From: Actinomycetota bacterium | GTDB taxonomy: Bacteria > Actinomycetota > AC-67 | Direction: 5' to 3' | Assembly (NCBI GenBank): GCA_046565595.1 | Contig: JBKHYG010000121.1 | Location: forward strand, 330-64,329 | Length of the DNA: 64,000 bases | Program-made: the position numbers and the translations under genes | Notes under the pieces: model-generated | The model's database searches: none | The model's input: only the letters and a program-made list of their open reading frames with translations | Told to the model about the DNA's origin: nothing | In this document: one piece after another, positions 3,866-61,879 of the stretch | How positions within the stretch are numbered: the stretch's first letter is position 1 | How the letters are laid out: every line of letters begins with the position of its first letter

Positions 3866-3884
3866 CACCTGGGGGTGTTCATCC

Positions 3885-6792: not shown

Positions 6793-6798
6793 GGTCTG

Positions 6799-12017: not shown

Positions 12018-12044
12018 CCTCAGGCGCGCTTGATGGTCTGAACA

Positions 12045-12836: not shown

Positions 12837-12888
12837 ACCCGGATGGTATCGGGTGTCACCGCGCGGCGTGGGTATGGATCCGGTTCGT

Positions 12889-13671: not shown

Positions 13672-13714
13672 CTTCCCCTGCCCTGTCGCCCGTGCCGCGC
13701 AGGAGGTATCGGAT

Positions 13715-40695: not shown

Positions 40696-41231
40696 TGGAA
40701 CAGTGGGTCTTCTGGCCGATGGCCGTGTTCGCTCTGGCGAGCGCGATGATCGTCATCGTCACTCCCAACGCGGTGCATGCTGCCCTGGCCCTGGTTGCGA
40801 ACCTGTTCTCGATCGCGGTGCTGTACCTGCTGTTGGACGCACACTTCCTGGCTGCGGCTCAGGTGGTGGTCTACGCGGGAGCGATCGTCGTCCTCTTCCT
40901 CTTCGTGATCATGTTGCTCGGCGTGGATCGGCGAGAGGACCTTGCCGAGAAGGTCCCGGGTCAGCGCGCGATCGGCTTGGCATCCGTGCTGGGGATCGGC
41001 GCGATAACCGTCCTGGTCGTCCGTGCGGTCTACGCGACCACGACCTTCGGTGACCTATCTGCTGCGAACGAGAGTGGGAACATCGAGGCGCTCGGTCGGC
41101 TGCTCTTCAGCAGTTACCTCTGGCCCTTCGAGGTCGTATCGGTCCTGTTGGTAGTCGCAGCGATCGCTGCCATGGTCCTTGGGCGCAAGCGTCCAACCAG
41201 GGAACTCACTCATCAGGATCGTGACGCATGA
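40695..41231 (+). CDS. nuoJ: NADH-quinone oxidoreductase subunit J
   Basis: Five transmembrane helices, ND6-like. TGATG coupled. Confidence 0.8.
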
Positions 41232-41530
41232 TCCAGCCCGCACAGTTCTTGGCATTGGCCGCCATGCTCTTCGCGGTCGGTTCGGCTGGCGTGATCCTGC
41301 GTCGGAACCCGCTGGTGATGTTCATGGGGATCGAGCTGATGCTGAACGCGGTCAACCTGACCCTGGTCACCTTCGCCAAGGTGCATGGGACGCTCGACGG
41401 TCAGGTGCTCGCCTTCTTCGTCATCGTCGTCGCTGCTGCCGAGGTGGTTGTCGGACTCGCGATCATCGTGCAGATGTTCCGACGGGTCCGAGGCGCCGAT
41501 GTGGATGATCGGAGTTCGCTCAGATGGTGA
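41228..41530 (+). CDS. nuoK: NADH-quinone oxidoreductase subunit K
   Basis: 100 aa, three transmembrane helices, ND4L-like. Confidence 0.85.
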
Positions 41531-44931: not shown

Positions 44932-46385
44932 TGCCGGTAGAGCAGGCTCCCGAGATCATCTGGCACGCGCTCTCGCCGATGCTGATCCTGCTGGCTGGCG
45001 GCATGCTGCTGCTCCTCGTTGGAGTGTTCGCTCCCGCCCTTCCCCGTCGCTTCCTGGCGATCGGATCGTTCCTGACCGTCGTGCTGTCGGGCATCTTCCT
45101 CGCCGCTCAGCTCCCTTCCCAACCTCGCATCACCATGAACGACATGGTCATCATCGATGGTGTGGGCCTCTTCGCTTCGATGGTGATCCTCGCAGCTGCG
45201 GCGTTCGTGATCCCGGTGACCCATTCGTATCTCCGCGAACATGGATGGAACCGGGTCGAGTATCAGCCGCTGCTGTTGTTCGCGACCCTCGGGATGGTCA
45301 TGCTCGCCACGGCGAACGATCTCATCATGGTCTTCATCGCCATCGAGGTCTTGTCGCTCGCGCTGTACACGATGGTGGGCATCGCCAAGAGAGAACGCAC
45401 GGCTCAGGAAGCGAGCCTGAAGTACTTCCTCCTCGGTGCCTTCTCCAGCGCGATCCTGCTCTACGGAGTGGCCTTGTTGTTCGGCGGTACCGGATCCACT
45501 CGGATCCCCGCCATCGCCGACACGATCGCTGCGGGCGGAGCTGACGGCAGACTGGTCTTCGCCGGGCTCGCCTTGCTCATCACCGGTTTCGCCTTCAAGA
45601 TCGGCGCGGTGCCGTTCCACGCTTGGACACCAGATGTGTATCAGGGCGCTCCCACCGCTGTGACGGCATTCATGGCTGCGGGGACCAAGGCCGCCGCCTT
45701 CGCAGCGTTGCTCCGCACGCTGCTGGTGTCCTTCGGAGCGATCGCGTGGGATTGGCGTCCGGTGCTCTGGGCCATCGCCATCGCAAGCATGGTCCTCGGA
45801 TCCGTGGTCGCGATCGTCCAGACCGACATCAAACGGATGCTCGGATATTCGAGCGTCGCACATGCGGGTTTCATCCTCATCGGCGTGGTCGCGGCCGATC
45901 GTGACGGGCTCGCCTCCTCTCTGTTCTATCTGGCCGTCTACGCCCTGATGACCATCGGAGCGTTCGTGTCGGTGATGGCCAGTGGTAGGGGAGACGATGA
46001 GCGAAGCGACCTGGCATCCTGGGCTGGGCTCGGGCACGCCGAGCCGCTGTTCGCGGGCGTCATGACCTTCTTCCTGTTGTCGCTCGCAGGGATCCCGCCT
46101 ACGGGAGGTTTCGCCGCCAAGTTCCTGGTGTTCGCCGCCGCCGAAGGCCAGGGTGAAACAGGACTGGTGATCGTGGGTGTCTTGAGCAGCGTCGTAGCGG
46201 CGTTCTTCTATCTCCGCGTGATAGTCCTCATGTGGCTGCAGGACCCGCTGGACATGCAGCGATCCGCGCTCGATCGGGTCAGTGCCTGGACGCTCGGCGC
46301 AGCAGCAGGTCTCGTCGCGATCATCGGCATCTACCCACAGGCGTTGATCGACCTCGCCCGCAACGCCGCGACGCTGGCAGGCTGA
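44931..46385 (+). CDS. nuoN: NADH-quinone oxidoreductase subunit N
   Basis: 484 aa, ND2 family. Confidence 0.9.
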   Translation: MPVEQAPEIIWHALSPMLILLAGGMLLLLVGVFAPALPRRFLAIGSFLTVVLSGIFLAAQLPSQPRITMNDMVIIDGVGLFASMVILAAAAFVIPVTHSYLREHGWNRVEYQPLLLFATLGMVMLATANDLIMVFIAIEVLSLALYTMVGIAKRERTAQEASLKYFLLGAFSSAILLYGVALLFGGTGSTRIPAIADTIAAGGADGRLVFAGLALLITGFAFKIGAVPFHAWTPDVYQGAPTAVTAFMAAGTKAAAFAALLRTLLVSFGAIAWDWRPVLWAIAIASMVLGSVVAIVQTDIKRMLGYSSVAHAGFILIGVVAADRDGLASSLFYLAVYALMTIGAFVSVMASGRGDDERSDLASWAGLGHAEPLFAGVMTFFLLSLAGIPPTGGFAAKFLVFAAAEGQGETGLVIVGVLSSVVAAFFYLRVIVLMWLQDPLDMQRSALDRVSAWTLGAAAGLVAIIGIYPQALIDLARNAATLAG

Positions 46386-47365
46386 TGGGCCTGAAACTGC
46401 CCGCGCTCCCTCGGCTAGAGGCTGAGCTGCGAGAAGATCTTGAGGCGGTCGAGTCGCTCCTCAGGTCCTCCGTCGCCTCGGATCTGCCACTGCTGGACGA
46501 AGCTTCGCGCTTCTTGATCGAGGCCGGAGGGAAGCGCTTCCGCCCTCTCCTGGTGCTCCTGTCGGGACGCTTCGGGAAACAGGACGCGCCCGAGAGCCTG
46601 CGTGCGTGCGCGGCGGCGATCGAACTGACGCATCTCGCGACGCTGTATCACGACGATGTGATGGATGAGACCATGACCCGTCGCGGGGTCGACACGGCCC
46701 ATCGCAGGTACGGCAACGCGACCGCGATCTTGGTCGGCGACTTCCTGTTCGCGCGAGCCTCGAAACTGTCCGCACCGCTCGGGGTATATGTATCAGAGAG
46801 ATTGGCTTCGACGATCGGGGACCTGGTAACCGGTCAGGTCATGGAGACCGAACTCTCCTCCGGTGGAGACCAGCGTGTGCCTACCGTAGAGGAACACCTC
46901 GAGGTGCTGCGGTTGAAGACTGCCGTGCTGATCGAAACCTCATGCCACCTCGGGGCCTATCTAAGTGGAGCAGACCACGGGACAGTCCAGGCGCTGACGA
47001 GGTTCGGCGCACAGATCGGCCTTGCCTTCCAGTTATCCGACGATCTGCTCGACCTCGTTGGGGACGAGAGCGAGACAGGCAAGCGGCCGGGAACGGACCT
47101 GCGTGAAGGGGTCCTGACCCTGGCGCCGCTGCTGACCTTGTCCAGCGACTCCGAGTCAGCGAAGCGTCTGCGGTCGGCCCTTCAGGAGGCGGATCTGGAT
47201 ACGGCGATCGAACTGTTGCGGCAGGACGGCAGCATCGATCTTGCGCGGGAAAAGGTACGCGCCCATCGAGACATGGCGCTTCAGGCCTTGGAGCAACTTC
47301 CTAGGTCCGACGCGGCTGACGCGCTCAGATGGATGGCCGAGACACTCGACGATCGGACGCTGTGA
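46385..47365 (+). CDS. polyprenyl diphosphate synthase (trans-isoprenyl diphosphate synthase family)
   Basis: DDxxD motifs (LYHDDVMDE, FQLSDDLLD). Start overlaps the nuoN stop as TGATG. Confidence 0.8.
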   Translation: MGLKLPALPRLEAELREDLEAVESLLRSSVASDLPLLDEASRFLIEAGGKRFRPLLVLLSGRFGKQDAPESLRACAAAIELTHLATLYHDDVMDETMTRRGVDTAHRRYGNATAILVGDFLFARASKLSAPLGVYVSERLASTIGDLVTGQVMETELSSGGDQRVPTVEEHLEVLRLKTAVLIETSCHLGAYLSGADHGTVQALTRFGAQIGLAFQLSDDLLDLVGDESETGKRPGTDLREGVLTLAPLLTLSSDSESAKRLRSALQEADLDTAIELLRQDGSIDLAREKVRAHRDMALQALEQLPRSDAADALRWMAETLDDRTL

Positions 47366-48513
47366 TGCGGGTCGCGATCATCGTTCACTCCTACTACCTG
47401 CGAGACACCCGTCCTCGCCGTCACGCCGCCATCCTCTCTCGCGCCGGACACCAGGTCGAGGTCATCTGCGCGCGCGATGTCGACGAATCTGCCTCCGAGG
47501 AGATCGGGGGAGTGAAGATCCGCCGGCTACCTGCTAGACGCAAGCGCGGATCCAAGCTCCGATACATCTTCGAGTATCTCTCCTTCACGCTCATGGCTTC
47601 GCTGGCGCTGCTACGGAGAAGAGGCCGCTACGACGCGATCATCGTGCTCGGCATCCCGAACTTCCTGGTGGCTTCCACGCTCGTCCTGCGACCCCGCAAG
47701 CAGCAGCGTCCGAGGATCCTGCTCGACATGCGTGATCCATTGCCCGAGTTCTTCCAGGCCAAGTATCAGATGCCGGCTGGGTCCCTGGCGCATCGGCTCT
47801 TGCTCGCCGAGGAGCGTTTCTCTTGTCGCCTTGCCGACCAGATCCTGACGGTGGTCGGTTCGATGGCTCGGCTGTATGCGCGCAGTGTCGATCCATCCAA
47901 GATCAAGGTCGCGATGAACGCGCCCGACACGAGGCTCTTCAAGGTGACCGATGTCAGACGGGACCCCTCTGATCGGACCATGCTCTACACCGGCACGGTG
48001 GCAGAACGCTATGGCGTGGATCTGGCGGTTCATGCGGTCGCGCTCCTCAAGGCAGAGATCCCTGGTCTGCGCCTGCGGATCGTCGGGGATGGCGATCTCA
48101 TCGAGGACTGTCGCGCGAAGGCAACATCCCTGGGGGTATCCGACAGGGTCGAGTTCCTCGCCCCGGTGCCGCTGGATCAGGTGCCTGGGCTCATCGCGTC
48201 GGCTTGGATCGGGGTGCAGCCCAACCGTAGCGATGCGCTGATGGATCACAGCCTGTCGACCAAGATCCTCGAGTGGGCGAGCCTCAGGCTGCCCGTCGTG
48301 GCTGGTCGAACCGATGCACTCGAGGCGGTGTTCGGATCGGACTCGATCTGGCTGCACGAACCCGGCGATCTAGAGGACCTGTGCCGCTGTATCCGCGAGG
48401 TCCAGGCCGGCCAAGACACCGCTCGTCGCCTAGAGCTGGCGCAGCAGCGGGCCGAGGCGGTCGACTTCGAGTCACAGGCCAAGGTCCTCCTGGCGGCGGT
48501 CGAGGGGGCGTGA
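47365..48513 (+). CDS. glycosyltransferase family 4 (GT-B fold)
   Basis: GT4-like C-terminal domain. TGATG coupled to the polyprenyl synthase. Confidence 0.7.
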   Translation: MRVAIIVHSYYLRDTRPRRHAAILSRAGHQVEVICARDVDESASEEIGGVKIRRLPARRKRGSKLRYIFEYLSFTLMASLALLRRRGRYDAIIVLGIPNFLVASTLVLRPRKQQRPRILLDMRDPLPEFFQAKYQMPAGSLAHRLLLAEERFSCRLADQILTVVGSMARLYARSVDPSKIKVAMNAPDTRLFKVTDVRRDPSDRTMLYTGTVAERYGVDLAVHAVALLKAEIPGLRLRIVGDGDLIEDCRAKATSLGVSDRVEFLAPVPLDQVPGLIASAWIGVQPNRSDALMDHSLSTKILEWASLRLPVVAGRTDALEAVFGSDSIWLHEPGDLEDLCRCIREVQAGQDTARRLELAQQRAEAVDFESQAKVLLAAVEGA

Positions 48514-48580: not shown

Positions 48581-49408
48581 ATGAGCACCAAGACCGACAG
48601 CGTCGTCATAGAGAACGACTCGAGACTCGCGTCCTATGGGGCCTACATCAACGAGATGTGGGAGCGCAAGGGGCTCGTCCGGGTGCTCGCCAGTCGCGAG
48701 TTGAAGTCGTCCTACGACATGAATGTCGTCGGCTTCATGTGGTGGCTGCTCGAGCCCCTCACCCTGACCGGGGTCTACTTCATCCTCTTCAGTGTGATCT
48801 TCAACAACCGCCGTGAGAACTATCTACTCGTTCTGCTCACGGCTCTGCTGCCCTTCAAGTGGTTCAACCAGACGATCGTCCAGTCCATGGGTACGGTCCG
48901 GTCGCACGCGAGCCTGATAACCGATGTGTACTTCCCGCGGGCTCTACTACCGATGACCGAGACCGTCATCGGGCTCGCGCATTTCTCGGTGGGTCTGTTG
49001 GTCGTTCCGGTGCTCATGATCATCATGGGTGTCCCGGCGACCTGGAACCTGCTCGCGCTGCCCGGGATCATGTTGGTTCAGTTGATCTTCGGCCTCGGCC
49101 TCGCCTATCCGATGTCGGTCCTCGGCTTGAACTACCGCAACCTGCCGAACCTCATGGGCAACATCCTGAGGCTGTGGTTCTATCTCTCTCCAGCGATCTG
49201 GAGCATCGAGAGGGTGCCCGAGAGGTACCACTGGCTGGTCAGTCTCAATCCCTTGAGCGGGCTCTTCCAGGGATATCACTCGGCGATCCTGGGTGATCCA
49301 TGGCGGGTCTGGGATCTGATGTGGACCCTCACGCTGGGCACCGTGCTGCTGATCGGCGGCACCTATTACTTCACGCGCCGAGAAGCGCAGTTCGGGAAGA
49401 TGTTGTGA
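48581..49408 (+). CDS. ABC-2 type polysaccharide/teichoic acid export permease (Wzm/TagG-like)
   Basis: 275 aa with six transmembrane helices in an ABC-2 exporter layout. Confidence 0.8.
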   Translation: MSTKTDSVVIENDSRLASYGAYINEMWERKGLVRVLASRELKSSYDMNVVGFMWWLLEPLTLTGVYFILFSVIFNNRRENYLLVLLTALLPFKWFNQTIVQSMGTVRSHASLITDVYFPRALLPMTETVIGLAHFSVGLLVVPVLMIIMGVPATWNLLALPGIMLVQLIFGLGLAYPMSVLGLNYRNLPNLMGNILRLWFYLSPAIWSIERVPERYHWLVSLNPLSGLFQGYHSAILGDPWRVWDLMWTLTLGTVLLIGGTYYFTRREAQFGKML

Positions 49409-50298
49409 GCAACGAGTTTGCGATCCAAGCGCGCGATGTCGGCGTCCGGTTCTTCATCCGCCATCACACCCCGACGGTCCACTCGGGCCTGGTGCGGTTC
49501 ATGAAGGGGAAGGTCAAGCCTGACGAGTTCTGGGCGTTGCGACACATCGACTTCGACATCCCGAGGGGGAGCGTCTTCGGATTCATCGGGGCGAACGGAT
49601 CTGGCAAGTCGACCATGCTGCGTACCATCGCGCGCATCTACCATCCCGACGAAGGATCCCTGAAGGTCCGTGGCAAGATCTCGAACCTGATCTCGCTGGG
49701 GGCAGGTTTCCAGAAGACGCTGTCTGGCATGGAGAACATCACCTTCAACGGCATGTTGCTCGGACTGTCGCGCCAAGAGATCGAGCGCAAGAAGGAAGCG
49801 ATCATAGAGTTCGCGGACATCGGGAAGTTCATCCACGCCCCCGTCCGAACCTATTCGAGCGGTATGCGAGCACGGCTGGGTTTCGCTATCGCGGTCCATG
49901 TCGATCCCGAGATCCTGGTCGTGGACGAGGTGTTGGTCGTCGGCGACGCGCAGTTCCGTCAGAAGTGTTCGGACAAGATCCGCGAGTTGTTCACCAACGG
50001 TGCGACGGTCGTCATGGTCCAGCACAACATGGATGTCATCGTCGACATGTGCCAGCAGGTCATGTGGCTGGACAAGGGCAAGGCCCGGATGCTCGGAGAC
50101 CCGGAGACCGTCGCCAACGAGTACCTCGCAAGCAAGGGCCTACCACCTCTCGAGCCAAAGGCCGCTGACGCCGCTGATCCAAAGGCCGCCGGCGGCGCTG
50201 GCCCTAGGGACGCGGGTGGCGCGGGCCCTAAGGACGCGGGTGGCGACGGTAACGCAACCGAGGGCGACGGCCCCAGGGTTCAGGCCAAGCGTTCGTAG
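49405..50298 (+). CDS. ABC transporter ATP-binding protein (Wzt/TagH-like) with a low-complexity C-terminal tail
   Basis: Walker A GANGSGKST, signature SSGMRARL, Walker B ILVVDE. GTG start overlaps the permease stop as GTGA. Confidence 0.8.
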   Translation: MSNEFAIQARDVGVRFFIRHHTPTVHSGLVRFMKGKVKPDEFWALRHIDFDIPRGSVFGFIGANGSGKSTMLRTIARIYHPDEGSLKVRGKISNLISLGAGFQKTLSGMENITFNGMLLGLSRQEIERKKEAIIEFADIGKFIHAPVRTYSSGMRARLGFAIAVHVDPEILVVDEVLVVGDAQFRQKCSDKIRELFTNGATVVMVQHNMDVIVDMCQQVMWLDKGKARMLGDPETVANEYLASKGLPPLEPKAADAADPKAAGGAGPRDAGGAGPKDAGGDGNATEGDGPRVQAKRS

Positions 50299-51494
50299 AC
50301 ACCCAGGAGTTCCTTCGCCTGGCCGTCCCAGGTGAAGTTGCCAGCCAGCTTCGAACTTCGCTCTTTCAGTGGCCCCAGGTCGGCACCGATCAATCGCGCC
50401 AGAGCCTGCTTCATGTCGCTCGCGTCGCCAGGCCTGAACACCTCACCCAGCTTCTCTCCGCGGACGATCCTCGCGATATCAGGCAGGTCCGATGCGCAGA
50501 TCGCGAGGCCGGCATGCATGTACTCGAAGAGCTTGTTCGGTGCGGCGAGCTCGTTGTTCAAACCCACCGGTTCGTAGCTGACGATCCCGATGTCCGCAGC
50601 CGCCGCGGCGTTCACTACCCCGTCGGGTTCCACCGAGCCTGCGAAGACCACACGGTCGCCGGCAGGTTGAGCGAGTTGACGGAGCTGGTCCTCGATCGGG
50701 CCCCAACCCAGCATCACCAGCCTGGCTCCGGTCAGATCAGCCATCGCCGATACGAGGGCCTCGAGTCCACGGTTCGGAGTGAAGCCTCCCGCATAGATGA
50801 GCAGCCGTTCGTCGCCTCGGCGAAGCTCGACGATCCGGGGATCGGGCTGGATCTGCGCGGGCGGATCGGGACAGTTCATGACCACCGTCGGCTCTGGGAT
50901 ACCGTAACGCTCGACGAGTATCTGTCCCCTGGCGGCTGTTGGCACGATCGTCGCCTGGGCGTGCGAGATGTACCTGGCTTCCACCGCTCGCCAAGCGCGC
51001 CGTTCGAGTTTCGTCAGGCCGGTGAGATCGGGATACAACTCATGAGCGTCGTACACCAGGTGCGCTCGCGAATGATTCGCGACGGCAGCGCCAGCGGCCA
51101 GGGTGTTCAGGTCGTGGGCATGCACCAGTTCCGGCATCGGCAATCGGCTGGCCGCGCGGACGAACGCCCTATCCAGCCAGAGATCCCTCGCCAGGATGCC
51201 GGTAGCGATCAGTCCGCGAGGCGGTCTGATCCCTATCCGGCTGTGGCCATCGGCTTCGCCCGCGCTCGAGGCAGATGCCCTTCCAGCCGTGCCCGTGATG
51301 GTGGGTCCCGCCCAACGACCCGTCCGGACTCCTCTCACCACTCGGATCCGATCTACCAGATCGTCCTTCGGAAGGTCTCCCGCTTGCAGGCAGAGGATCG
51401 TCACTTCATGGCCGGCTTGTATAGCGCTCCTTGCCTCCCGCAAGACGCGAGCGTCCCGGGTGAAGGGGTTGCGAAGCAGCATCAGGACGCGCAC
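50280..51494 (-). CDS. glycosyltransferase family 4
   Basis: 404 aa. GT-B fold with an EX7E-like C-terminal region. Confidence 0.7.
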   Translation of the reverse strand: MRVLMLLRNPFTRDARVLREARSAIQAGHEVTILCLQAGDLPKDDLVDRIRVVRGVRTGRWAGPTITGTAGRASASSAGEADGHSRIGIRPPRGLIATGILARDLWLDRAFVRAASRLPMPELVHAHDLNTLAAGAAVANHSRAHLVYDAHELYPDLTGLTKLERRAWRAVEARYISHAQATIVPTAARGQILVERYGIPEPTVVMNCPDPPAQIQPDPRIVELRRGDERLLIYAGGFTPNRGLEALVSAMADLTGARLVMLGWGPIEDQLRQLAQPAGDRVVFAGSVEPDGVVNAAAAADIGIVSYEPVGLNNELAAPNKLFEYMHAGLAICASDLPDIARIVRGEKLGEVFRPGDASDMKQALARLIGADLGPLKERSSKLAGNFTWDGQAKELLGVYERLA

Positions 51495-51532
51495 TCCTTC
51501 AGCCTACGCAGACCGGAGGCCCGCGAAGCCCG

Positions 51533-54500
51533 GTGATAGCCTCGCTGCATCTCATGACGGACGCCAACCCCGCCGACCTTGACGCCATCGGCGTCCTACG
51601 ACGCACCCGCGACACGCTAACTCTTCGAGCCGAGATCGAAGAGGCCCGTGCGCGCGCCGCCAACGAGCGGCTCCAGATGTTCGGCAAGAGCATCTGGGGA
51701 TTGCTGGGGATCATCTTGTCGGCTGGATGGAAGCGTCCCTGGAAGCTGCCGAAACTCTTCTATCTGCTAGCCCGTACGCGCTTCGCTGGCCCGAAGCGCC
51801 GCCGCGCCTTCTCCGAGGCACGGCGTTGCTTCGAGGATCGACGATACGAGGATGCGCTCGCGAGGTGTGACGAGATCCTTCGAGACAACCCCGCGGACCT
51901 TCCGGTGTTGCGCTTCAAGCGAGAGATCCTCGGCAAGATGGGTGACCTCTCAGGCATGCTCGCCACCGTTCGGCAGGCGCGCGCACTGGGCGAACTCGAG
52001 AGCCTGCGTCGGTCAGAACGCGTGCTCGAGAGCCGCCTGAAGGAACTCGATCCCACCTGGCTGCCGCCGATCCCGGGTCGTCCCGAGCGGTACGAGGCCG
52101 TTCCCGGCCGGGTCTTGCATCTGCTGAAGAACTCGATGCCCCAACACACCTCGGGGTACACCGCTCGTAGCCGTTACACGATGCTCGCCCAACGCGGCGC
52201 TGGGCTCGATCCGGTCGTGGTCACATCCTTGGGCCAGCCGAGGCTCGACGGGCTGACCGACTTCCCGCTCGTCGAGGCGGTCGATGGGATCGAACACCAC
52301 CGACTCGACCTCGGGGACCTGCCCTACCTGGGTCTGCCCCCTCACGAATATCTCGAGCTGTTCGCTTGGACCGCGGCCGAGAAGGTCCGGGCGTTGAAGC
52401 CGGCCGTCATCCACGCCCGCTCTGGCTTCCGCGGCTACGAGATACCGCTGGTCGGCTTGGCACTGTCGAGGCACTTCGGGATCCCTCTGGTCTACGAGGC
52501 TTCGATGTTCCTCGAGGGAACCTGGACCGACGATGTCGAGTGGATGGAGCGGGGCGAGCTCTATCGCTTACGCACCGAACAAGAGAACCGGTGCATGCGT
52601 GAGGCCGACCATGTCGTGACGATCGCCGAAAGCATGAAGCAAGAGATCGTGGGTCGCGGGATCCCCAGTGACCATGTCACGGTCATCCCGAACGGTGTCG
52701 ATCCAGAGAGGTTCCAACCCCGTCCCAAGGACCCTGAACTCCTGCGATCACTCGGCCTAGAGGATCGAGTGGTGCTCGGCTACATCTCTAACATCGGTTA
52801 CCGGGAAGGCCTCGACATCATGGTGCGAGGCCTGGCTGAACTGATCTCTCGCGGAGAGGATGTCGGCGGCCTGATCGTCGGAGACGGTCCGCAGTTACCC
52901 GCCCTGCGTGAACTCGCCGAGGAGTTAGGTATCACCGATCGTGTGGCGATCACGGGACCGGTCTCGCATGAGGTTGTCGCGGACTACTACGCGGCGATCG
53001 ACCTGTTCGTGATCCCTCGCCGCGATGAGCGCGCCGCGAGGCTCGTGACGCCGTTGAAGCCGTACGAGGCGATGGCTCTCGGCAAGCCGCTACTGGTTGC
53101 AGGTTTGCCGGCGCTCCTGGAGGTTGCGGAGCCGCCCCTCCGCGGAGCCGCGTTCACTCCGGAAGATCCGATCTCGATGGCGGACGCCGCCACGCCACTG
53201 ATCCGCGATCATGCCGAACGCGAACGCCTGGGGGAAGAGGCTAGACGCTGGGTCCTGTCCGAGAGGACCTGGGACAGGGTCGGTCCGATGTATAGGGATG
53301 TCTATGCGCGAGCATCCGAGGTGGCCGCTAGCCGGAGTACGCCGGTTGGCGATCCGGCGCCGGCGGCACTAGGAGAGGCGGAAGCCTTACGCGTCGAGAT
53401 CGAGCAACTCGGGACCCGGATCGCCAAGGCCCGTTCCAGGGCTGCGGCCACAGAAGAGAAGTATTGGAACGATCCGATGCGCAAGGTTCGAAAGGGGGTC
53501 CGCGAGGTCTTGAAGGCGTCCGGTCCGATCGGAAAACTGAAGCAGTTGGTGCGCGTGGCGAGACGGTGGAGAGCAGCCCGGCTGGAAACGCCTGACCGTT
53601 TCCCGCCGCAGAGGATCGTCGCGCGCAAGACGCAAGCCCTGCCGAGCCTCGCCTCGGAGGGAAGCGAAGGGTCTCTGCTCGAACTCGCCAGGACCGCTCT
53701 TGCCACGCTACCCAAGGGAGGCGACCGGCCTCCGGGCATCCTCTTGTACGCGCCACTGGTCCGCAACAACCCGTTCCAGGCTCTGCTGTACAGCGCATGT
53801 TGGGAGTCCGGGATCGCGCCGCTGCCGCTGACCGATCTGGATGTCGCTGACGAGGCCAAGGCGCTGCCTGGTCTCGGCGTCGAGACCTGGTTCCACATCC
53901 ACTGGACCGGTCAGGTGCTGCAAGGTGCGACATCCAAGTCGGACGCGGCCGAGAGACTGAAGGCCTTCACCGAACGGCTGGAGGGGCTCGTGCACGCGGG
54001 TGTGCGGATCGCTTACACGGTCCACAATGCCTTGCCTCACGAACACGAGTTCCCAGCTCTGGAAGCAGGCGTGGTCAAGGCGATCTTGGATCGCGCCAGC
54101 CTCGTTCACTGCCTGACCGAGGATGCCCCCGATCTGGTGAAGCCGACCATCGATCTGCCCTCAGACAAGATCGAGGTCATCCCTCATCCCTCGTACATCG
54201 GCGTCTACCCCGAGCATCTCTCCAAACTGCAGGCTCGTTTCGAACTCGGGCTCACAGACGATGATCTGGTCGTAGCCACGCTCGGAGGCATCCGGGCCTA
54301 TAAGGGCATCGGCCCGCTCCTGGAAGCCTTCGAACAAGCTGCCGAGCAAGAGCCACGCCTCCGTCTGATCGTCGCAGGCAAACCGATCGCTTTCCCAGAG
54401 GCCAAGGCGCTGCGCGGACGCTGCGAAGGCGATGATCGGATCATCTCCTTCTTCGGACGGGTCCCCGAGGATCAACTGCAGCGCTACGCGAAGGCCGCAG

Positions 54501-54793
54501 ACGCCATCGTGCTAGCCCACGATGCCGTGTTGAACTCTGGCGTACTGCCGCTGTCGCTGACCTTCGGCCGCCCTGTGATCGCTGCCAAGCGCGGGGCGCT
54601 TGAGCGGCTGGTGACCTCTGACATCGGGATCACCTACGACCCCGACGAGCCGGGTGGCCTGAAGCGCGCCCTCTTACAGGTTAAGGATCTGCGAGATCCG
54701 AACTACGAGGCGGCAGCTAGGAAGCGGGCGGAAGAGATCGCGCCCGACCGGATCGCTGCCTCGTTCGCGGAAGCCTTGCGCCGCCGCTACTGA
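51533..54793 (+). CDS. large multidomain glycosyltransferase: N-terminal amphipathic/TPR-like region, GT4 domain, coiled-coil spacer, second GT-B domain
   Basis: 1086 aa. First GT4 domain at ~aa 190-600. Predicted coiled coil at ~aa 600-680. Second GT-B domain at ~aa 700-1086. The true start may lie downstream of 51533, because only 38 bp separate it from the divergent gene. Confidence 0.6.
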   Translation: MIASLHLMTDANPADLDAIGVLRRTRDTLTLRAEIEEARARAANERLQMFGKSIWGLLGIILSAGWKRPWKLPKLFYLLARTRFAGPKRRRAFSEARRCFEDRRYEDALARCDEILRDNPADLPVLRFKREILGKMGDLSGMLATVRQARALGELESLRRSERVLESRLKELDPTWLPPIPGRPERYEAVPGRVLHLLKNSMPQHTSGYTARSRYTMLAQRGAGLDPVVVTSLGQPRLDGLTDFPLVEAVDGIEHHRLDLGDLPYLGLPPHEYLELFAWTAAEKVRALKPAVIHARSGFRGYEIPLVGLALSRHFGIPLVYEASMFLEGTWTDDVEWMERGELYRLRTEQENRCMREADHVVTIAESMKQEIVGRGIPSDHVTVIPNGVDPERFQPRPKDPELLRSLGLEDRVVLGYISNIGYREGLDIMVRGLAELISRGEDVGGLIVGDGPQLPALRELAEELGITDRVAITGPVSHEVVADYYAAIDLFVIPRRDERAARLVTPLKPYEAMALGKPLLVAGLPALLEVAEPPLRGAAFTPEDPISMADAATPLIRDHAERERLGEEARRWVLSERTWDRVGPMYRDVYARASEVAASRSTPVGDPAPAALGEAEALRVEIEQLGTRIAKARSRAAATEEKYWNDPMRKVRKGVREVLKASGPIGKLKQLVRVARRWRAARLETPDRFPPQRIVARKTQALPSLASEGSEGSLLELARTALATLPKGGDRPPGILLYAPLVRNNPFQALLYSACWESGIAPLPLTDLDVADEAKALPGLGVETWFHIHWTGQVLQGATSKSDAAERLKAFTERLEGLVHAGVRIAYTVHNALPHEHEFPALEAGVVKAILDRASLVHCLTEDAPDLVKPTIDLPSDKIEVIPHPSYIGVYPEHLSKLQARFELGLTDDDLVVATLGGIRAYKGIGPLLEAFEQAAEQEPRLRLIVAGKPIAFPEAKALRGRCEGDDRIISFFGRVPEDQLQRYAKAADAIVLAHDAVLNSGVLPLSLTFGRPVIAAKRGALERLVTSDIGITYDPDEPGGLKRALLQVKDLRDPNYEAAARKRAEEIAPDRIAASFAEALRRRY

Positions 54794-56001: not shown

Positions 56002-57306
56002 GTGACCGTCGAAGCGCTCCTTTCCCGTCTAGAGAACTCCCAGAGCAAGGCTGCGGTGCTGGGCCTGGGCTATGTCGGCTTGCCTCTGGTGATCAGCCTC
56101 GCCCGCACCGGCGTGCCGGTGATCGGTTTCGATGTGAAGCCCGATGTCGCGAGCCGCCTGGGCAGAGGTGTCAGTCACATCGACGATGTCTCCGATGCCG
56201 ACCTCGCCGAGGTCTCCGCGCTGACCCGGTTCACCGCCGACATCCAAGACATCGAGGTTGCCGATGTCATCTTCATCTGCGTTCCGACCCCGCTCGCCGT
56301 CGGGAAGCAGCCGGATGTGTCCTACATAGAGCGCGCCGCCCACCTGATCGCGACGGTCATGAGGCCAGGCCAACTCGTGATCCTCGAGTCGACGACATAT
56401 CCCGGCACGACCGACGACGCCGTGCTACCGATCCTCGAAGGATCGGGCCTGAAACTCGATAAGGATTTCCTGCTCGCCTATTCGCCCGAGCGCGTGGATC
56501 CAGGCAACAGCTCGTTCCACACGATGAACATCCCGCGCGTCGTCGGTGGCGTGACACCCCTATCGACCCGGGCTGCAGAGCTCATCTACTCGAGGATCGT
56601 GCCGAAGATCTTCACCGTCAGCAGCGCGCGCACCGCCGAGATGGCCAAACTGCTCGAGAACACCTTCCGGTGGGTCAACATAGCTCTCGTCAACGAGTTG
56701 ACCTTCGTCGCGCGAGCGATCGGCGTCGACATCTACGAGGTCATCGACGCGGCGGCGACCAAGCCGTTCGGCTTCATGCCCTTCTATCCCGGCCCCGGTG
56801 TGGGCGGACACTGCATCCCACTCGACCCGTTCTACCTGCAGTGGGTGGCCAAGGTCACCGGCGAGGGGACGCGCTTCGTCGAACTTGCCGAGTCGGTCAA
56901 CTCCTCGATGCCGCGCGTGGTGGTCGACCGTGTGACGGAAGCTCTGAACGACAGGAGCAGATCGGTACGCGGCTCGAACATCCTGGTTCTGGGGGTCGCC
57001 TACAAGCCGGATGTGAGCGATCAGCGCGAGTCGCCTGCGGCCGCCTGCATCTTGAGGCTCCAGAAGCTCGGCGCGCGCGTCACATACTCAGATCCGCACG
57101 CACCCACCTACCGAGAGCACGGTGTCGATCTGGCCTCCGTCGAACTGAGCGAAGAGGCCATCCGGGGGGCGGACTGCGTCCTGGTGCTCACCGATCACTC
57201 GGCTTTCGACTACGACATGGTCCTGGCGACTGCAGACCTGATCGTCGATACCCGGAACGCCTTCGGTCGTCGTGGTCTACGCGACGACAAGATATCCACC
57301 CTGTAA
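56002..57306 (+). CDS. wecC: UDP-N-acetyl-D-mannosamine dehydrogenase / nucleotide-sugar dehydrogenase
   Basis: GTG start after a GGAGG Shine-Dalgarno. NAD-binding GLGYVGLPL and catalytic-Cys region GGHCIPLDP. Confidence 0.8.
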   Translation: MTVEALLSRLENSQSKAAVLGLGYVGLPLVISLARTGVPVIGFDVKPDVASRLGRGVSHIDDVSDADLAEVSALTRFTADIQDIEVADVIFICVPTPLAVGKQPDVSYIERAAHLIATVMRPGQLVILESTTYPGTTDDAVLPILEGSGLKLDKDFLLAYSPERVDPGNSSFHTMNIPRVVGGVTPLSTRAAELIYSRIVPKIFTVSSARTAEMAKLLENTFRWVNIALVNELTFVARAIGVDIYEVIDAAATKPFGFMPFYPGPGVGGHCIPLDPFYLQWVAKVTGEGTRFVELAESVNSSMPRVVVDRVTEALNDRSRSVRGSNILVLGVAYKPDVSDQRESPAAACILRLQKLGARVTYSDPHAPTYREHGVDLASVELSEEAIRGADCVLVLTDHSAFDYDMVLATADLIVDTRNAFGRRGLRDDKISTL

Positions 57307-57430
57307 CCGCACTATTTCGCCCCGCTTTGGGCTGATTCGTAGTGGTTGCGTATCCGGTGTGGTCCCTGTGAACTACCGGAGGTCCTTGACCTGCTTCCGC
57401 ATGTCCTTAAGCATCAGTCTCCCTCCCCGT

Positions 57431-60325
57431 ATGCGACGCGCCGCTGCATGTGTCGTGGCGGCGGCGTTAACGCTCACGCTGCCGGCCGTGGCTGCGCGCG
57501 CACAGACCCCGCTCCCGCCTGACGCCGTCCTCACGATCCCCGGTCATGGTTGGGGCCACGGCCGGGGGATGGGCCAGTGGGGAGCCAAGGGCATGGCCGA
57601 CCAGGGTAAGAACTACCGAGAGATCCTGTCCTACTACTACTCCTCGGTCGAGTTCGGAGACAGAGGCGATGAGTGGTTGCGGGTGCTGGTGGAAGCGTCT
57701 CCCGATGTCGTCATCACGAGCGAGTCGAGCTTCAAGATCAGTTACTCAGACGGCGAGGTCTTAGCGACATCTGGCGATGCGAAGCCCTTCTGGCGTGTCA
57801 TCTACACCGGGGGCGCGCATCGCGCTCAGCGATCCGAAGCCTGGAACGGCCCCTGGGAGACCGTCGCCACCGATACCCGGTACATGATCTTCGCGCCGCA
57901 GGGCTCATTGCTCGAGGTCGTCTTCGGCAACGGAACCGTGCGGCGCTATCGGGGGAACATCATCGCCCGCTACGCGAGTGTCGATGGTATGCGCACGATA
58001 AACAGCCTCCGGATGGAGGACTATCTGCGCGGCGTCGTGCCTCGCGAATCTCCCTCGGGTTGGCCGGCAGAACAGTTGAAGTCTCAAGCGGTCGCTGCAC
58101 GCACCTATGCGTACCGCAAGCGCGACGACTCGAGATCGCGCGGCAACACCTTCGACATCTGTGCGACTACCGCGTGTCAGGTCTACGGAGGCGCAGGCCA
58201 ACGCTCCCGCCCCGGCGGGGCCATCAGCAGCCTCGAGGCATCCTCAACCGACGGGGCGCTCTCGGCGACGAAGGGGACCGTCCTGAACTACGCCGGAAAG
58301 GCCATCCTGGCGGAGTATTCGAGCAGCACGGGTGGCTACACAGCCCCTGGCTCGGTCCCATATCAGAAGGCGGTCCCTGACCCGACCGATGCCGTGAGCC
58401 CACACCATGAGTGGACCGCGAAGGTATCGGTCCGCGAGATCGAGTCCACCTGGCCCGCCATCGGTCGCCTGGTCCGCATCGAGGTGACCGAACGCAACGG
58501 CTTCGGCGAGTGGGGTGGCCGCGTGAAGCGTCTGAGGATCGTCGGGTCGTCGAAGACGATCGAGATCTCTGGGGACGCCTTCCGAGGAGCCTTCGCCTGG
58601 CCTTCCAAGTCCGACGGCCTCCGTTCGAGTTGGTTCACGATCGGCTACTGGGCTTCCGAACGGGTCCTCACCCCCGGCTCGACGACCATCCCGAGAGGCC
58701 AATCGAAACAACTGACCTACCGGTTCCGCAACCTCGGCACCGAGCCGTGGCCGGTCGGCGGGACGGTCGGCTTCTCCACCGATGCCGGAAGCAGCCTGCA
58801 AGCCGCCTCCTGGCCGTCACCGACCCGCCCCGCCTGGATCTCTCGCAATGTGACCCGCCCCGCCGCATCGAGCATCGCCGAGGGGGAGGTAGCCGAACTG
58901 ATCGTCGCGCTCGACACATCGTCTGCCCCGGTGGGCAGCGTGACCCTGCCCCTACGGCTAGAGGTCGAGGGCGGCACGCGGCTGGATGCGATCAACCTGA
59001 AGGTAGATGTCGTGCCGTCCTGGTTCGAGTTGGCTCCCAACATCCTGTCGAACGGTTCCTTCGAGAAGGGACTCTGGGCTTGGAGCGCTGACCGTGCTTC
59101 GCTCGTCGATGGCCGTGACCTGACCCGAGGCGTGTCAATGCAGCCCGGAGGCTCGATCACCCAGACCGTGAACCTGGCTGGCGGTTCCGGGCGTCGTTTC
59201 ATGTGGGGAGCCTGGACGAGCGCGGACCAGGGCGCAGACCTCGAGGTCAAGGTGCTTGTGACCTTCGCGGACGGACGCAGCTACATCAAGCGTCTCGCCG
59301 TACCGGGTGGTCCTCACGACTGGACATACACCGAGCAGGGGTTCCGGACCGCTGCGGACCGGCAGGTATCGAACATCCGTTTCGAGGCCAGGTCCGTCGG
59401 GGGATCTGCCCGCCTGGACGCTGTCAGACTGATCGAGGATCCGGTCGCCAACTCGAGCTTCGAGCAGGACGAGCTGACCGCCTGGTCGATCCCTTTGGCT
59501 CCTGCGGACGCGCCGTTCGCGCGCACCGCGACTTGGACCGCCTCCGACGGAGATCAGGCCCTGATCATCCCCGGTCGGGTCGAACCGATCCTCGTCGAAC
59601 AGCGGTTCGCTCTGGACGCTCCGGCATGGGAACGCTACTCGTGGCGCTTCAGCCATCGGTCCTACCAGTCCACGGCGGGCCAGGGATCGTGGCTGGCTTC
59701 GCTGACACTCGTGCATCCCGACGGCACCGAGACCGTCTCGGAGATCCCGATAGACACAGCGCAACATCCTTGGGAGAGCGCGCGGGCCGAGCTGGTGGCT
59801 CGAAAACCGGTCACCGAAGGGATCCTCCGATTCCGGGCCGAGGGCCAGACGGGCTCTCTCTATATGGATCAGATCCGAGTCTTCCGCTCGAGGGTCAGCG
59901 ACGCCAGTTTCGAGGCAGGTGACCTGTCGGCGTGGAACACCGGCGGTCTCCAACCAGACGACCAGGTCGCCACTTGGGCCGCTCGGGACGGCGACCTGGG
60001 CCTGCGCCTGACCGGGCCGGCCAGATCCTTCGTCACCCAGAACCTCGTCCTGCGGGGCACCCCCAGCCGGACCTTCCGTCTGGCAGCCTGGAACAATTCC
60101 AGCAGGGCCAGATCGGGCCGCGTGGATGTGGCGGTGACCTTCTTCCACACCGACGGCACCCGTTCAGCGCAGGTGTTGGACTTCACAGGGCCAGATCACG
60201 CCTGGACCTACCGCGAGATCCGCATCAGCTCGGCCAAGCGCTTCGACGGCGTCCGGGTGGCTGTGATGCTGGACGGCCCATCTGGCTGGACGAGTTTCGA
60301 CTCGATACGGCTGATCGACGCCTAG
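57431..60325 (+). CDS. secreted SpoIID/LytB-domain protein with three tandem CBM4_9-like modules
   Basis: Signal peptide MRRAAACVVAAALTLTLPAVAARA. SpoIID hallmark GHGWGHGRGMGQWGA. Three ~140-aa repeats begin NGSFEKGLWAW, NSSFEQDELTAW and DASFEAGDLSAW. Start chosen at ATG 57431; an in-frame ATG at 57401 is an alternative. Confidence 0.7.
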   Translation: MRRAAACVVAAALTLTLPAVAARAQTPLPPDAVLTIPGHGWGHGRGMGQWGAKGMADQGKNYREILSYYYSSVEFGDRGDEWLRVLVEASPDVVITSESSFKISYSDGEVLATSGDAKPFWRVIYTGGAHRAQRSEAWNGPWETVATDTRYMIFAPQGSLLEVVFGNGTVRRYRGNIIARYASVDGMRTINSLRMEDYLRGVVPRESPSGWPAEQLKSQAVAARTYAYRKRDDSRSRGNTFDICATTACQVYGGAGQRSRPGGAISSLEASSTDGALSATKGTVLNYAGKAILAEYSSSTGGYTAPGSVPYQKAVPDPTDAVSPHHEWTAKVSVREIESTWPAIGRLVRIEVTERNGFGEWGGRVKRLRIVGSSKTIEISGDAFRGAFAWPSKSDGLRSSWFTIGYWASERVLTPGSTTIPRGQSKQLTYRFRNLGTEPWPVGGTVGFSTDAGSSLQAASWPSPTRPAWISRNVTRPAASSIAEGEVAELIVALDTSSAPVGSVTLPLRLEVEGGTRLDAINLKVDVVPSWFELAPNILSNGSFEKGLWAWSADRASLVDGRDLTRGVSMQPGGSITQTVNLAGGSGRRFMWGAWTSADQGADLEVKVLVTFADGRSYIKRLAVPGGPHDWTYTEQGFRTAADRQVSNIRFEARSVGGSARLDAVRLIEDPVANSSFEQDELTAWSIPLAPADAPFARTATWTASDGDQALIIPGRVEPILVEQRFALDAPAWERYSWRFSHRSYQSTAGQGSWLASLTLVHPDGTETVSEIPIDTAQHPWESARAELVARKPVTEGILRFRAEGQTGSLYMDQIRVFRSRVSDASFEAGDLSAWNTGGLQPDDQVATWAARDGDLGLRLTGPARSFVTQNLVLRGTPSRTFRLAAWNNSSRARSGRVDVAVTFFHTDGTRSAQVLDFTGPDHAWTYREIRISSAKRFDGVRVAVMLDGPSGWTSFDSIRLIDA

Positions 60326-60478: not shown

Positions 60479-60850
60479 GTGACCGACTACTTCTGGCAGT
60501 ACGGAACCCTTGGGGCTCTCGCGGTCCTCGCGGTCGGGTTCGTCGCGGTCGGATTCACGGTCAACCGCATCATGAGGCCCAAGAAGCCTCGCCCCGAGAA
60601 GCTCACGACCTACGAGTGTGGCGTGGATCCCGTCGGTGACGGTTGGTCTCAGACGCAGATCCGTTACTACGTCTTCGCCTTCCTGTTCGTGATCTTCGAT
60701 GTTGAAAGCGTCTTCCTGTTCCCGTTCGCGACCATCTTCGAGACCTTCCCGAACCCCGGTCTCGTGTTGGTCGAGATGATCATCTTCATCCTCATCCTGG
60801 CGGTCGGCCTGCTGTATGCATGGCGCCGCCGCGTCCTCGAGTGGCTCTGA
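60479..60850 (+). CDS. nuoA: NADH-quinone oxidoreductase subunit A, second paralog
   Basis: Start uncertain. GTG 60479 aligns with the N-terminus of the first NuoA (VTDYFWQYG against TLVDYLPIL); GTG 60437 is an alternative. ECG motif and three transmembrane helices present. Confidence 0.7.
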
Positions 60851-60851
60851 C

Positions 60852-61397
60852 ATGGGTCTGATCGACAAGGTCGATTTCCCGCAACCGGCGAAGTTCATCT
60901 TCAACTGGGGCCGGCGGTATTCCCTTTGGGTCATGAACTTCGGCCTGGCTTGCTGTGCGATCGAACTGATCGCGGCTTCCACCAGTCGTCATGACTTCAT
61001 CCGCCTGGGCGTCATCCCCGTGGCGCATGGTCCCCGCCAGGCGGACCTGCTGGTCGTGGCTGGCACGCTGACCGACAAGATGGCTCCTGCCCTGAAGCGC
61101 GTCTATGAGCAGATCCCCGAGCCCAAGTATGTGATCAGTTTCGGCTCCTGCTCCAACTGCGGGGGTCCCTTCTGGGACTCGTATTCGGTCACCAAGGGGG
61201 TCGACCAGATCGTTCCCGTGGATGTCTATGTACCGGGTTGCCCTCCGCGTCCCGAGGCCCTGCTCGAAGGCATCCTGCTGCTGCAAGACCGCATCAAGGA
61301 CGAGTCCTTGAAGGAACGCTTCGAGCGGCGCGCCGCGACCGAACCGATCGTGGTCGGTGGCGGCTCCATCAACGACACGAGCATCGACGACGGATGA
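60852..61397 (+). CDS. nuoB: NADH-quinone oxidoreductase subunit B, second paralog
   Basis: N2 ligand motifs [20 protein letters not shown]. Confidence 0.85.
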
Positions 61398-61879
61398 ACG
61401 CTTCCGAACTAGCCACCTACATCACCGGCCAGACCGACGCGGTCTCCCGGCACGAGGAATCGTGCGGGCAACTGTCGATCTGGGTAGACCCCTCGCGCTG
61501 GGTCGACGTCGCGACGCTCCTGCGGGACGACCCGCGATTGCACTTCGACTTCGTGACCTTCCTGACCGCTGTGGATCTTGAGACCGACGGCTTCGAGATC
61601 GTGGCGAACCTCTACTCTGTGCGTCGCATCCACCGTGTGCTGCTGAAGACGATCGTCGGTCGCGAGGCACCGCGCTTGCCGACCCTTTCTCAGGTCTGGA
61701 AGGGCATGAACTGGTGTGAGCGTGAGACATGGGAGCAGTTCGGGATCCAGTTCGACGGACACCCGAACCTCGTGAAACTGCTGCTTCCGGTCGAGTTCGA
61801 CGGCTATCCGCTCCGTAAGGACTTCCTGCTCATGACCCGCGAGGCCAAGGAATGGCCGGGGGAGAAGGAGCCGGCATGA
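61394..61879 (+). CDS. nuoC: NADH-quinone oxidoreductase subunit C, second paralog
   Basis: ATGA coupled. 161 aa, 30-kDa subunit family. Confidence 0.8.

Follow-up and report, generated by a model that had tools for sequence, protein, structure and literature searches.

A dual glycosyltransferase of an Actinomycetota bacterium as a rare fusion of two genes that normally lie side by side

In a 64,000-nucleotide stretch of contig JBKHYG010000121.1 from an Actinomycetota bacterium (GenBank assembly GCA_046565595.1; this whole stretch is referred to as the window), one open reading frame (ORF) encodes a protein with two glycosyltransferase (GT) modules. Based on comparison with homologous proteins and loci, this dual GT is a real, rare, and clade-restricted fusion of genes that normally lie side by side, and the gene pair formed by the two halves is widespread in Actinomycetota and Chloroflexota. 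The fusion origin follows from the usual occurrence of the halves as adjacent genes and from the very small number of full-length matches. The analysis shows the domain architecture, the fusion origin, the genomic neighborhood, and the physical character of the linker. With respect to function, we favor, with moderate confidence, a role as a bifunctional peripheral-membrane synthase that makes the backbone of a teichuronic-acid-like wall polymer containing N-acetylmannosaminuronic acid (ManNAcA).

The fused gene and its homologs

The dual-GT ORF runs without interruption for 1086 codons from a GTG at 51533 to a TGA stop codon at 54791-54793, and a GGAGG lies 12 nt 5' of the GTG. The NCBI gene call starts at an ATG (51554) and gives a 1079-aa product, listed here as P0001 (“MAG: glycosyltransferase [Actinomycetota bacterium]”; MAG, metagenome-assembled genome). 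Residue numbers refer to the 1079-aa form; ORF numbering is higher by seven. A sequence-only reading of the window had described a 1086-aa protein with two GTs, and this description held: the ORF is real, and both modules match Pfam families and fold as GT-B in AlphaFold2 models. The ORF and its parts are as follows (pLDDT, predicted local distance difference test):

51533..54793, + strand: dual glycosyltransferase ORF, recognized from the ORF and full-length homologs at 48-65% identity
51569..51685, + strand: long N-terminal helix, residues 6-44, net charge 0 (AlphaFold2, pLDDT 80-89)
51686..51793, + strand: cationic aromatic-rich amphipathic segment, residues 45-80, net charge +7, SIWGLLGIILSAGWKRPWKLPKLFYLLARTRF (AlphaFold2 helices at 47-60 and 62-77)
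51794..52045, + strand: TPR-like helical repeats, residues 81-164 (AlphaFold2 pLDDT >90; weak TPR_14)
52109..53335, + strand: GT module 1, a GT4-type GT-B of the stp3-like subfamily, residues 186-594 (Pfam, NCBIfam, Foldseek)
53369..53467, + strand: linker helix with a short heptad-like pattern, residues 606-638, EAEALRVEIEQLGTRIAKARSRAAATEEKYW (AlphaFold2 pLDDT >90; heptad scan)
53468..53593, + strand: cationic amphipathic helices of the linker, residues 639-680, net charge +10 (hydrophobic moment, AlphaFold2)
53594..53674, + strand: disordered, poorly conserved tether, residues 681-707 (pLDDT 32-44; variable in the alignment)
53675..54790, + strand: GT module 2, a divergent GT4-like GT-B, residues 708-1079 (Pfam, alignment, profile against PDB, AlphaFold2/Foldseek)

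Among the 120 matches listed, P0001-P0007 alone cover the full length of the protein (P0002-P0007 at 48-65% identity), and the remaining matches to the full protein align with its N-terminal half (N-half) only. When a full-length profile was compared with 1.84 billion representative proteins, three matches extended from end to end (>1700 bits), and the next match, at 924 bits, was confined to the N-half. In more than 100 N-half matches, the GT4 core lies at the extreme C-terminus; the helical stretch before it always measures at least 140-240 aa, and any additional modules precede that stretch on its N-terminal side. One relative, P0008 (1197 aa), contains a tandem duplicate of the whole helical region plus the stp3-like GT4 (cores at 235-641 and 791-1190), which shows that helical element and GT4 core move together as one unit.

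We scanned one genome per GTDB species with a trimmed alignment and found 558 relatives of the C-terminal module (C-module); the locus counts given here cover the best 80 of these 558 plus a Cellulomonas sp. locus, for a total of 81. A GT4 partner lies directly upstream of the C-module as a separate ORF at 45/81 loci, is fused in one ORF at a single locus (1/81; L003, another Actinomycetota MAG), and lies downstream at 2/81. No partner was present within 700 nt upstream at 31/81 loci, and a contig end cut the upstream region at 2/81. At the Cellulomonas locus, an N-half homolog (646 aa) and a C-half homolog (387 aa) are separated by 4 bp, with no linker helix; the same locus encodes a nucleoside diphosphate (NDP)-sugar dehydrogenase, an Epimerase_2 (wecB-like) protein, an ABC transporter, and a pyruvyl transferase, and it includes two LCP genes. 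The linker is likewise absent where the halves are separate genes. By its own account, the sequence-only reading would have been refuted by a disordered center together with homologs occurring as single-domain proteins only, and about half of this was found. The homologs are overwhelmingly separate one-module genes, although fused exceptions exist.

An artifact (a chimeric assembly, a frameshift, or a stop codon lost in a MAG) would also join two genes that are separate in the true organism. The window derives from a MAG, and far more loci have the two halves split than joined. However, an identical unbroken architecture and linker layout recurs, at 48-65% identity, in seven distinct proteins that come from independent samples, and the GTDB scan added an eighth fused ORF at L003. 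Moreover, the linker consists of ~70-110 residues that are missing from split loci, which shows that the fusion is not a simple read-through. An artifact is therefore extremely improbable and can be regarded as effectively refuted already.

At four Acidimicrobiia/Microthrix loci (L019, L051, L061, L074), the C-module forms the C-terminal end of stop-to-stop ORFs of 1089-1128 aa, preceded by ~740 residues without a match to the query domains used. These ORFs represent either another fusion partner for this “NPYQ” GT module or over-extension of an ORF in high-GC DNA.

N-terminal region and GT module 1

The first ~185 aa of the dual GT form eight helices, four as TPR-like pairs. The helices within residues 47-77 are rich in Trp, Leu, and Lys/Arg. 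Residues 45-80 are a candidate interfacial membrane anchor rather than a transmembrane helix. A transmembrane anchor in the N-terminus was considered and rejected, as the Kyte-Doolittle peak (19 aa) is just 1.25 and the segment is unconserved among homologs; no segment of the whole protein qualifies as a transmembrane helix. AlphaFold2 predicted the TPR-like helices at residues 79-94, 98-111, 116-129, 132-145, and 149-164. A Pfam scan of the N-terminal 192 aa returned a weak TPR_14 match alone (E 0.5), and the same region gave significant TPR matches in several homologs, P0011 and P0064 among them. Based on the helical, TPR-like model and these homologs, the amphipathic/TPR-like N-terminus proposed from sequence alone was borne out, its own TPR_14 match being weak.

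Module 1 (aa ~193-600 in ORF numbering) matches Pfam models over both halves: Glyco_trans_4_4/Glyco_transf_4 with an E-value of 4e-21 (Glyco_trans_4_4, 76.5 bits; cutoff 29.7) and Glycos_transf_1 with an E-value of 1.2e-33 (116.5 bits; cutoff 26.4). A full-length AlphaFold2 model, computed as a monomer from a 60-sequence alignment, had a pLDDT of 88.9. Foldseek aligned module 1 with MshA, GlgM, and BshA at a target-normalized template modeling (TM) score of ~0.8, and HepE was also among the GT4 structures matched by the dual-GT modules. Thus, with both Rossmann halves above the Pfam threshold and likeness to GT4 structures, module 1 is of the CAZy GT4 type.

The best NCBIfam model for module 1 is TIGR04063 (“stp3”), a family of GT4s from PEP-CTERM/XrtA systems, to which module 1 aligns across the whole model (positions 1-395 of 397, E 1e-94); the score of 317.6 bits is under the curated cutoff of 442.05. 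In contrast to stp3, the dual GT has a helical N-terminal extension of ~190 aa, occurs in an Actinomycetota host, and has no exosortase/PEP-CTERM context around it. Module 1 is best explained as a retaining-type GT4 enzyme behind a helical/TPR region.

GT module 2

When the C-terminal third was scanned alone, module 2 (aa ~735-1086 in ORF numbering) matched Glycos_transf_1 (1.6e-11, 44.5 bits vs. a cutoff of 26.4); the GT4 N-domain model Glyco_transf_4 reached 20.5 bits, under its cutoff of 28.5. In a profile alignment to MshA, both glutamates of the EX7E motif are replaced in module 2, within VLNSGVLPLSL. The sub-threshold N-domain match and the replaced glutamates place module 2 outside the CAZy GT4 type as applied to module 1. 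A profile of the module 2 family nevertheless matched MshA in PDB at 4e-24, and Foldseek aligned the module with GT4 structures at a target-normalized TM score of ~0.7. In a combined alignment, MAFFT had matched homologs of the C-half to the GT domain of the N-half, so two separate AlphaFold2 models were made; the second model (ORF residues 595-1086, 35 sequences) had a pLDDT of 88.1 and showed module 2 as GT-B.

Because module 2 lacks EX7E and has a sub-threshold N-domain, yet adopts a GT4-like fold, it is a divergent GT4 relative, and it belongs to an “NPYQ/TVHNxLPH” family of GT4-like enzymes. Its invariant motifs are NPYQ, HxHW, TVHNxLPH, PHPSYxGxY, GxIRxYKG, and LNSG, and its stand-alone homologs are 350-430 aa long. 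The earlier claim of two GT-B/GT4-like domains is accordingly refined: both modules fold as GT-B, module 1 as a plain GT4 and module 2 as a divergent one.

Searches by sequence and by fold matched module 2 with generic GT4 structures only, and the JGI label of its homologs, “beta-1,4-mannosyltransferase,” could not be traced to a characterized enzyme. The GT4-like proteins CapL of Staphylococcus aureus and WbpH/WbpJ of Pseudomonas aeruginosa are credited with transfers of the beta-ManNAcA type. By analogy, a GT4-like module 2 would be compatible with ManNAcA transfer.

The central linker

The sequence-only reading had placed a heptad-rich coiled coil of ~80 aa between the two modules. Coiled-coil propensity was assessed with a home-made heptad scan and monomer AlphaFold2 models. 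Across the whole dual GT, the scan flagged residues 608-639 alone. The longest continuous linker helix measures 33 aa (606-638), or 36 aa in the second model (H16-51), corresponding to ~50 Å; helices at 641-654 and 658-677 follow at a pLDDT of 44-79, and residues 678-706 are disordered in both models (pLDDT 32-44). A Pfam scan of the linker alone gave no match. In place of the ~80-aa coil, the models thus predict a single helix of 33-36 residues followed by low-confidence helices and ~30 disordered residues. Coiled-coil prediction recovered a short heptad helix and no extended coil, and structure prediction returned the two GT-B modules without a long central coil. With respect to the disorder that would have told against the earlier reading, the greater part of the linker is modeled as disordered or at low confidence, and one helix is ordered.

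The heptad-like helix was flagged at the same position in 6/7 full-length homologs and has a length of 30-33 aa in 7/7. Its recurrence and constant length across homologs indicate that it is more than a chance feature. The cationic segment after the helix is 42-46 aa long with a net charge of +9 to +12 in 7/7 full-length homologs. Among the fused homologs, linker identity is 27-31% (27% for the cationic segment), compared with 64% (mean pairwise) for module 1 and 52% for module 2. The helical hydrophobic moment of the dual GT peaks at residues 635-660 (muH 0.78 vs. a 99th percentile of 0.655), so that by computation the segment beside the linker helix (635-680) combines a muH of 0.78 with a charge of +10, the charge being kept in 7/7 homologs. 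Both GT modules are net acidic, and each is preceded by the same pattern of a neutral or acidic helix and then a strongly cationic amphipathic segment.

As modeled, the linker is a short conserved helix, a cationic amphipathic element, and a flexible tether, rather than a coiled coil of ~80 residues. Residues 639-680 are a second candidate membrane-docking element. We also considered whether the linker might be a duplicate of the N-terminal coil-plus-amphipathic motif; the likeness is suggestive to the eye and weak in alignment (BLASTP E 0.06-0.08; hhalign probability 12%, E 0.0025).

The glycan cluster around the dual GT

The dual GT lies in a glycan cluster at ~47.3-57.3 kb of the window that comprises a GT4 gene, an ABC-2 permease, an ABC ATPase, a GT4 gene on the opposite strand, the dual GT, wecB on the opposite strand, and an NDP-sugar dehydrogenase:

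47329..48513, + strand: stand-alone GT4 (GT4_a), from a domain search; syntenic in L083 and L084
48581..49408, + strand: ABC-2 (Wzm-type) permease (Pfam ABC2_membrane; NCBIfam galactan export permease Wzm/RfbD, 3.5e-11)
49300..50298, + strand: ABC ATPase (TagH/Wzt-like), with the nucleotide-binding domain at residues 77-275 of 332
50280..51494, - strand: stand-alone GT4 (GT4_b), divergent from the dual GT; arrangement kept in L003, L083, and L084
54787..55905, - strand: non-hydrolyzing UDP-GlcNAc 2-epimerase (WecB/MnaA; TIGR00236, 333 bits, cutoff 210)
56002..57306, + strand: NDP-sugar dehydrogenase (TIGR03026, 412 bits)

The best equivalog matches of the dehydrogenase are UDP-ManNAc dehydrogenases, at sub-cutoff scores. 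As in the window, the gene pair is usually found near wecB, a UDP-ManNAc-dehydrogenase-like gene, and an ABC transporter of the Wzm/Wzt or TagGH type. wecB or a dehydrogenase gene occurs within 8 kb at 58/81 loci; in a comparison that sought to assign a module to ManNAcA, these genes were nearby at 44 of the 55 loci with a GT4 partner and at 14 of the 26 without one. The cluster with its ABC-2 exporter is conserved in L003, L083, L084, and many loci with the split pair. Loci with fused homologs share the order nuoN, polyprenyl synthase, GT4, ABC-2 permease, ABC ATPase (260-269 aa), GT4 (opposite strand), and fused gene, and the nuoN-polyprenyl synthase-GT4 junction is kept in L083 and L084.

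As listed, the ORF of the ABC ATPase shares 108 nt with the permease (49300-49408). Since the gene calls for its orthologs are 260 and 269 aa (L083, L084), its start was probably set too far upstream and should lie beyond 49408. An ORF of 340 aa at 50514-51536 (+ strand), antisense to the GT4 gene at 50280-51494, has no family matches; it is almost certainly a spurious frame of the kind common in high-GC DNA.

Chain-length control

The sequence-only reading had also proposed a molecular ruler, in which the central helix would act as a coiled coil of the WbdD/WbbB type between a polymerizing and a chain-terminating module and thereby set glycan length. WbdD trimers form an extended coiled coil of ~200 Å (PMC6286764); in known systems, such a coil separates the terminator from the membrane-proximal polymerase modules, and the Wzt of every terminated system bears a carbohydrate-binding module (CBM) that recognizes the cap (PMC6286764, PMC11231755). 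In the dual GT, a conserved heptad-like helix does lie between both catalytic modules, with an amphipathic segment of the membrane type after it, as WbdD has (PMC11231755), and some module 1 relatives have an N-terminal sulfotransferase or methyltransferase and a heptad region of ~70-110 aa, in the order terminator, coil, GT. However, the helix of 33-36 aa spans ~50 Å rather than ~200 Å (PMC6286764), and its length is invariant across homologs (30-33 aa). Pfam and NCBIfam recognized no terminator among the flanking modules: the dual GT contains GT-B domains only, with no methyltransferase, kinase, 3-deoxy-D-manno-octulosonic acid (Kdo) transferase, or sulfotransferase. The ABC ATPase has no C-terminal CBM, as its nucleotide-binding domain match ends at 275/332, whereas all terminated systems have one (PMC11231755), and the modules are usually encoded by adjacent genes without a coil between them. 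We therefore consider a ruler very unlikely; the extended coil, the terminator module, and the CBM on the ATPase that define one are all lacking. Nor would a polymerase and a ruler in one polypeptide be unusual, as the sequence-only reading had supposed, since WbbB (O12) and ORF6 (O7) already combine them (PMC11231755).

It is rather likely that the linker is a tether, not a chain-length ruler, because the elements formed by a preceding helix and a cationic segment read as membrane docking. Where the chain end is left unmodified, length is governed by glycosyltransferase:transporter stoichiometry (PMC6286764), which by analogy is the likelier regime for the dual-GT system. The dual GT offers no new principle of chain-length control.

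Proposed function

A backbone-polymerizing role is plausible because a two-GT enzyme is encoded in an ABC-transporter glycan cluster with UDP-ManNAcA precursor genes, and the product of the dual GT is probably an acidic cell-wall polysaccharide. The earlier comparison with WbdA-like polymerases is consistent with the two GT modules, the ABC exporter cluster, and the precursor genes; polymerization itself is predicted. According to the synthase reading that we favor, both modules would act in turn on an acceptor linked to undecaprenyl phosphate at the cytoplasmic face of the membrane, and by alternating would lay down the disaccharide repeats that form the backbone of a ManNAcA-containing polymer. 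A neutral sugar would come from one module and ManNAcA, supplied by the adjacent WecB and dehydrogenase, from the other; the completed chain would be exported via the adjacent ABC transporter. The helices and cationic segments would serve as membrane-docking, and possibly oligomerizing, tethers for the acidic modules at the anionic membrane surface. In this scheme, we infer the donor sugars, polymerizing activity, membrane binding, and assignment of modules to linkages.

Several points weigh against the synthase reading. The window encodes no initiating phosphoglycosyltransferase or LCP ligase, and the cluster includes two further GT4 genes that are alternative polymerase candidates. The subunits of the Micrococcus luteus synthetase are 54 and 52.5 kDa (PMC3005890), compared with ~70 and 43 kDa predicted for the gene pair. 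The likeness of the linker to the N-terminal motif has little statistical support (hhalign probability 12%). Finally, L084 has no wecB or dehydrogenase on the part of the contig that was read (which ends ~9 kb downstream).

Alternatively, the dual GT might not polymerize, and each module might instead add one residue, in a linkage unit or adaptor or in a side-chain disaccharide, while the stand-alone GT4s build the repeat. The GT4 genes at 47329-48513 and 50280-51494 are indeed syntenic with the fused gene, and relatives of both accompany the pair in many loci. Work from the Anderson laboratory reportedly describes M. luteus teichuronic acid (TUA) with a ManNAcA-containing linkage unit that needs non-polymerizing GTs. 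On the other hand, no GT component beside the wecB, dehydrogenase, and ABC genes is as constant as the N-half/C-half pair, which is tandem-duplicated in Micrococcus and Citricoccus. Enzyme fusion is also known for the alternating co-polymerases WbdA and WbbB (PMC11231755). A non-polymerizing role is thus unlikely, although it deserves some weight.

By the synthase reading, the widespread conserved gene pair is a likely backbone synthase and a lead to the TUA genes of actinobacteria, and its rare natural single-chain version would lend itself well to expression, structural work, and polymerization in vitro.

At L084 (12090-21154), which encodes the fused homolog P0006, the downstream genes include a 1073-aa GT2/GT-B protein and two RmlC-like dTDP (deoxythymidine diphosphate)-sugar isomerases, as well as methyltransferases and a kinase-like gene; rhamnose-pathway and GT2 genes are thus among them. 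Polymer sugars may therefore differ between lineages of the fused-gene clade.

Comparison with characterized systems

The dual GT is a rare fusion form in a known class of multi-module GT polymerases, and it represents an uncharacterized, widespread gene-pair family. Like WbdA (Escherichia coli O9a / Klebsiella pneumoniae O3, O5), it has several GT-B modules in one polypeptide, is encoded beside a Wzm/Wzt-type transporter in a cluster of exporter and nucleotide-sugar genes, and presumably follows the logic of one module per linkage; the likeness of the two as GT4-class enzymes is by Pfam only. WbdA is peripheral to the membrane (PMC11231755). It polymerizes a homopolymer (mannan) and depends on WbdD for its recruitment to the membrane, whereas the dual GT has no WbdD-like gene nearby, and its modules come from two subfamilies, each behind its own helix and cationic segment.

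WbbB (K. pneumoniae O12 / Raoultella terrigena) and O7 ORF6 combine a terminator, a coiled-coil ruler, and two polymerizing GT modules in one chain (PMC11231755). The dual GT resembles them as a large multi-module protein of an ABC-transporter pathway that combines a helical element with a pair of GT modules. In WbbB/ORF6, the coil lies between the terminator (a Kdo transferase or methyltransferase-kinase) and the GT pair, and Wzt has a CBM; in the dual GT, a helix of ~33 aa lies between the GT modules, there is no terminator, and the ATPase has no CBM.

TUA-type wall polymers of Actinomycetota have been described as poorly characterized (PMC13274773). As a precedent, two GTs that form a membrane-associated, lipid-dependent complex, the TUA synthetase (TUAS), synthesize M. 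luteus TUA, [-4-beta-ManNAcA-1,6-alpha-Glc-1-]n (PMC3005890), and an alternating action of two GTs has been proposed for Streptomyces TUA (utr) (PMC13274773). Both systems join alternating alpha-hexose and beta-ManNAcA-type residues through two membrane-associated GTs (PMC3005890, PMC13274773), as predicted here. TUAS is a 440-kDa hetero-oligomer of separate subunits of 54 and 52.5 kDa, whereas the dual GT is predicted to carry both activities on one chain; the Streptomyces enzymes are TarS-like and TarM-like, and TUA there is built on wall teichoic acid. We found no gene assignment for M. luteus TUAS in the literature (PMC3005890).

Micrococcaceae have the gene pair (a helical-GT4 gene, then an “NPYQ” GT gene) in two tandem copies, as seen at L076 (Micrococcus sp. 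Bu38, ~1159-13702) and at L038, L047, L071, and L082 (Citricoccus). wecB and an ABC transporter were seen in L076 and L071, and a dehydrogenase fragment in L076, L047, and L082. These tandem pairs are candidates for the genes of the purified M. luteus TUAS.

Relatives with sulfotransferase or methyltransferase domains

Four module 1 relatives (P0043, P0055, P0040, P0011) begin with a sulfotransferase (Sulfotransfer_3; P0043 and P0055 are of this type) or a methyltransferase, followed by a heptad-like region of 70-110 residues, the shared cationic motif (aromatic-R-x-S/T-x-W-R / RPW), TPR, and a C-terminal GT4. Their heptad region is far longer than the equivalent helix of the dual GT (6-44). 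At L066 (4885-9056), a relative of the sulfotransferase/methyltransferase type is followed by a stand-alone C-module GT. Based on this domain order, the sulfotransferase is a possible new kind of chain terminator in a terminator-coil-polymerase arrangement; none of the papers searched linked sulfotransferases to coiled-coil terminators.

By extension, the series of helix, cationic segment, TPR, and GT4 might be a Gram-positive/Chloroflexota counterpart of the Gram-negative coiled-coil terminator/ruler, with the dual GT as a terminator-less derivative, a proposal that we consider quite improbable. If it were true, the sulfotransferase and methyltransferase relatives would be the true rulers, with new terminator chemistry such as a sulfate cap, and the dual GT would have duplicated the membrane-proximal part of the device before its second GT. 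The dual GT would then be a self-contained single-chain TUA synthase in which short helices set the geometry between both active sites and the membrane.

Other features of the window

Just past the cluster, at 57272-60325 (+ strand), the window encodes a 1017-aa protein with SpoIID/LytB and CBM_4_9 domains, which has a syntenic 1134-aa equivalent in L083. From its domains, this protein may be a wall-remodeling enzyme tied to the polymer. The rest of the window encodes housekeeping functions, including the nuo operon, cytochrome c biogenesis, and heme synthesis, among others. Two complex-I-type sets are present (33475-46385 and 60816-63057): the first is a full nuo operon, with the 49-kDa, 51-kDa, and G subunits through H-N, and the second, downstream, is a nuoB-like/nuoD-like pair. 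Between these two sets lie the glycan cluster and a gene for a trans-polyprenyl diphosphate synthase.

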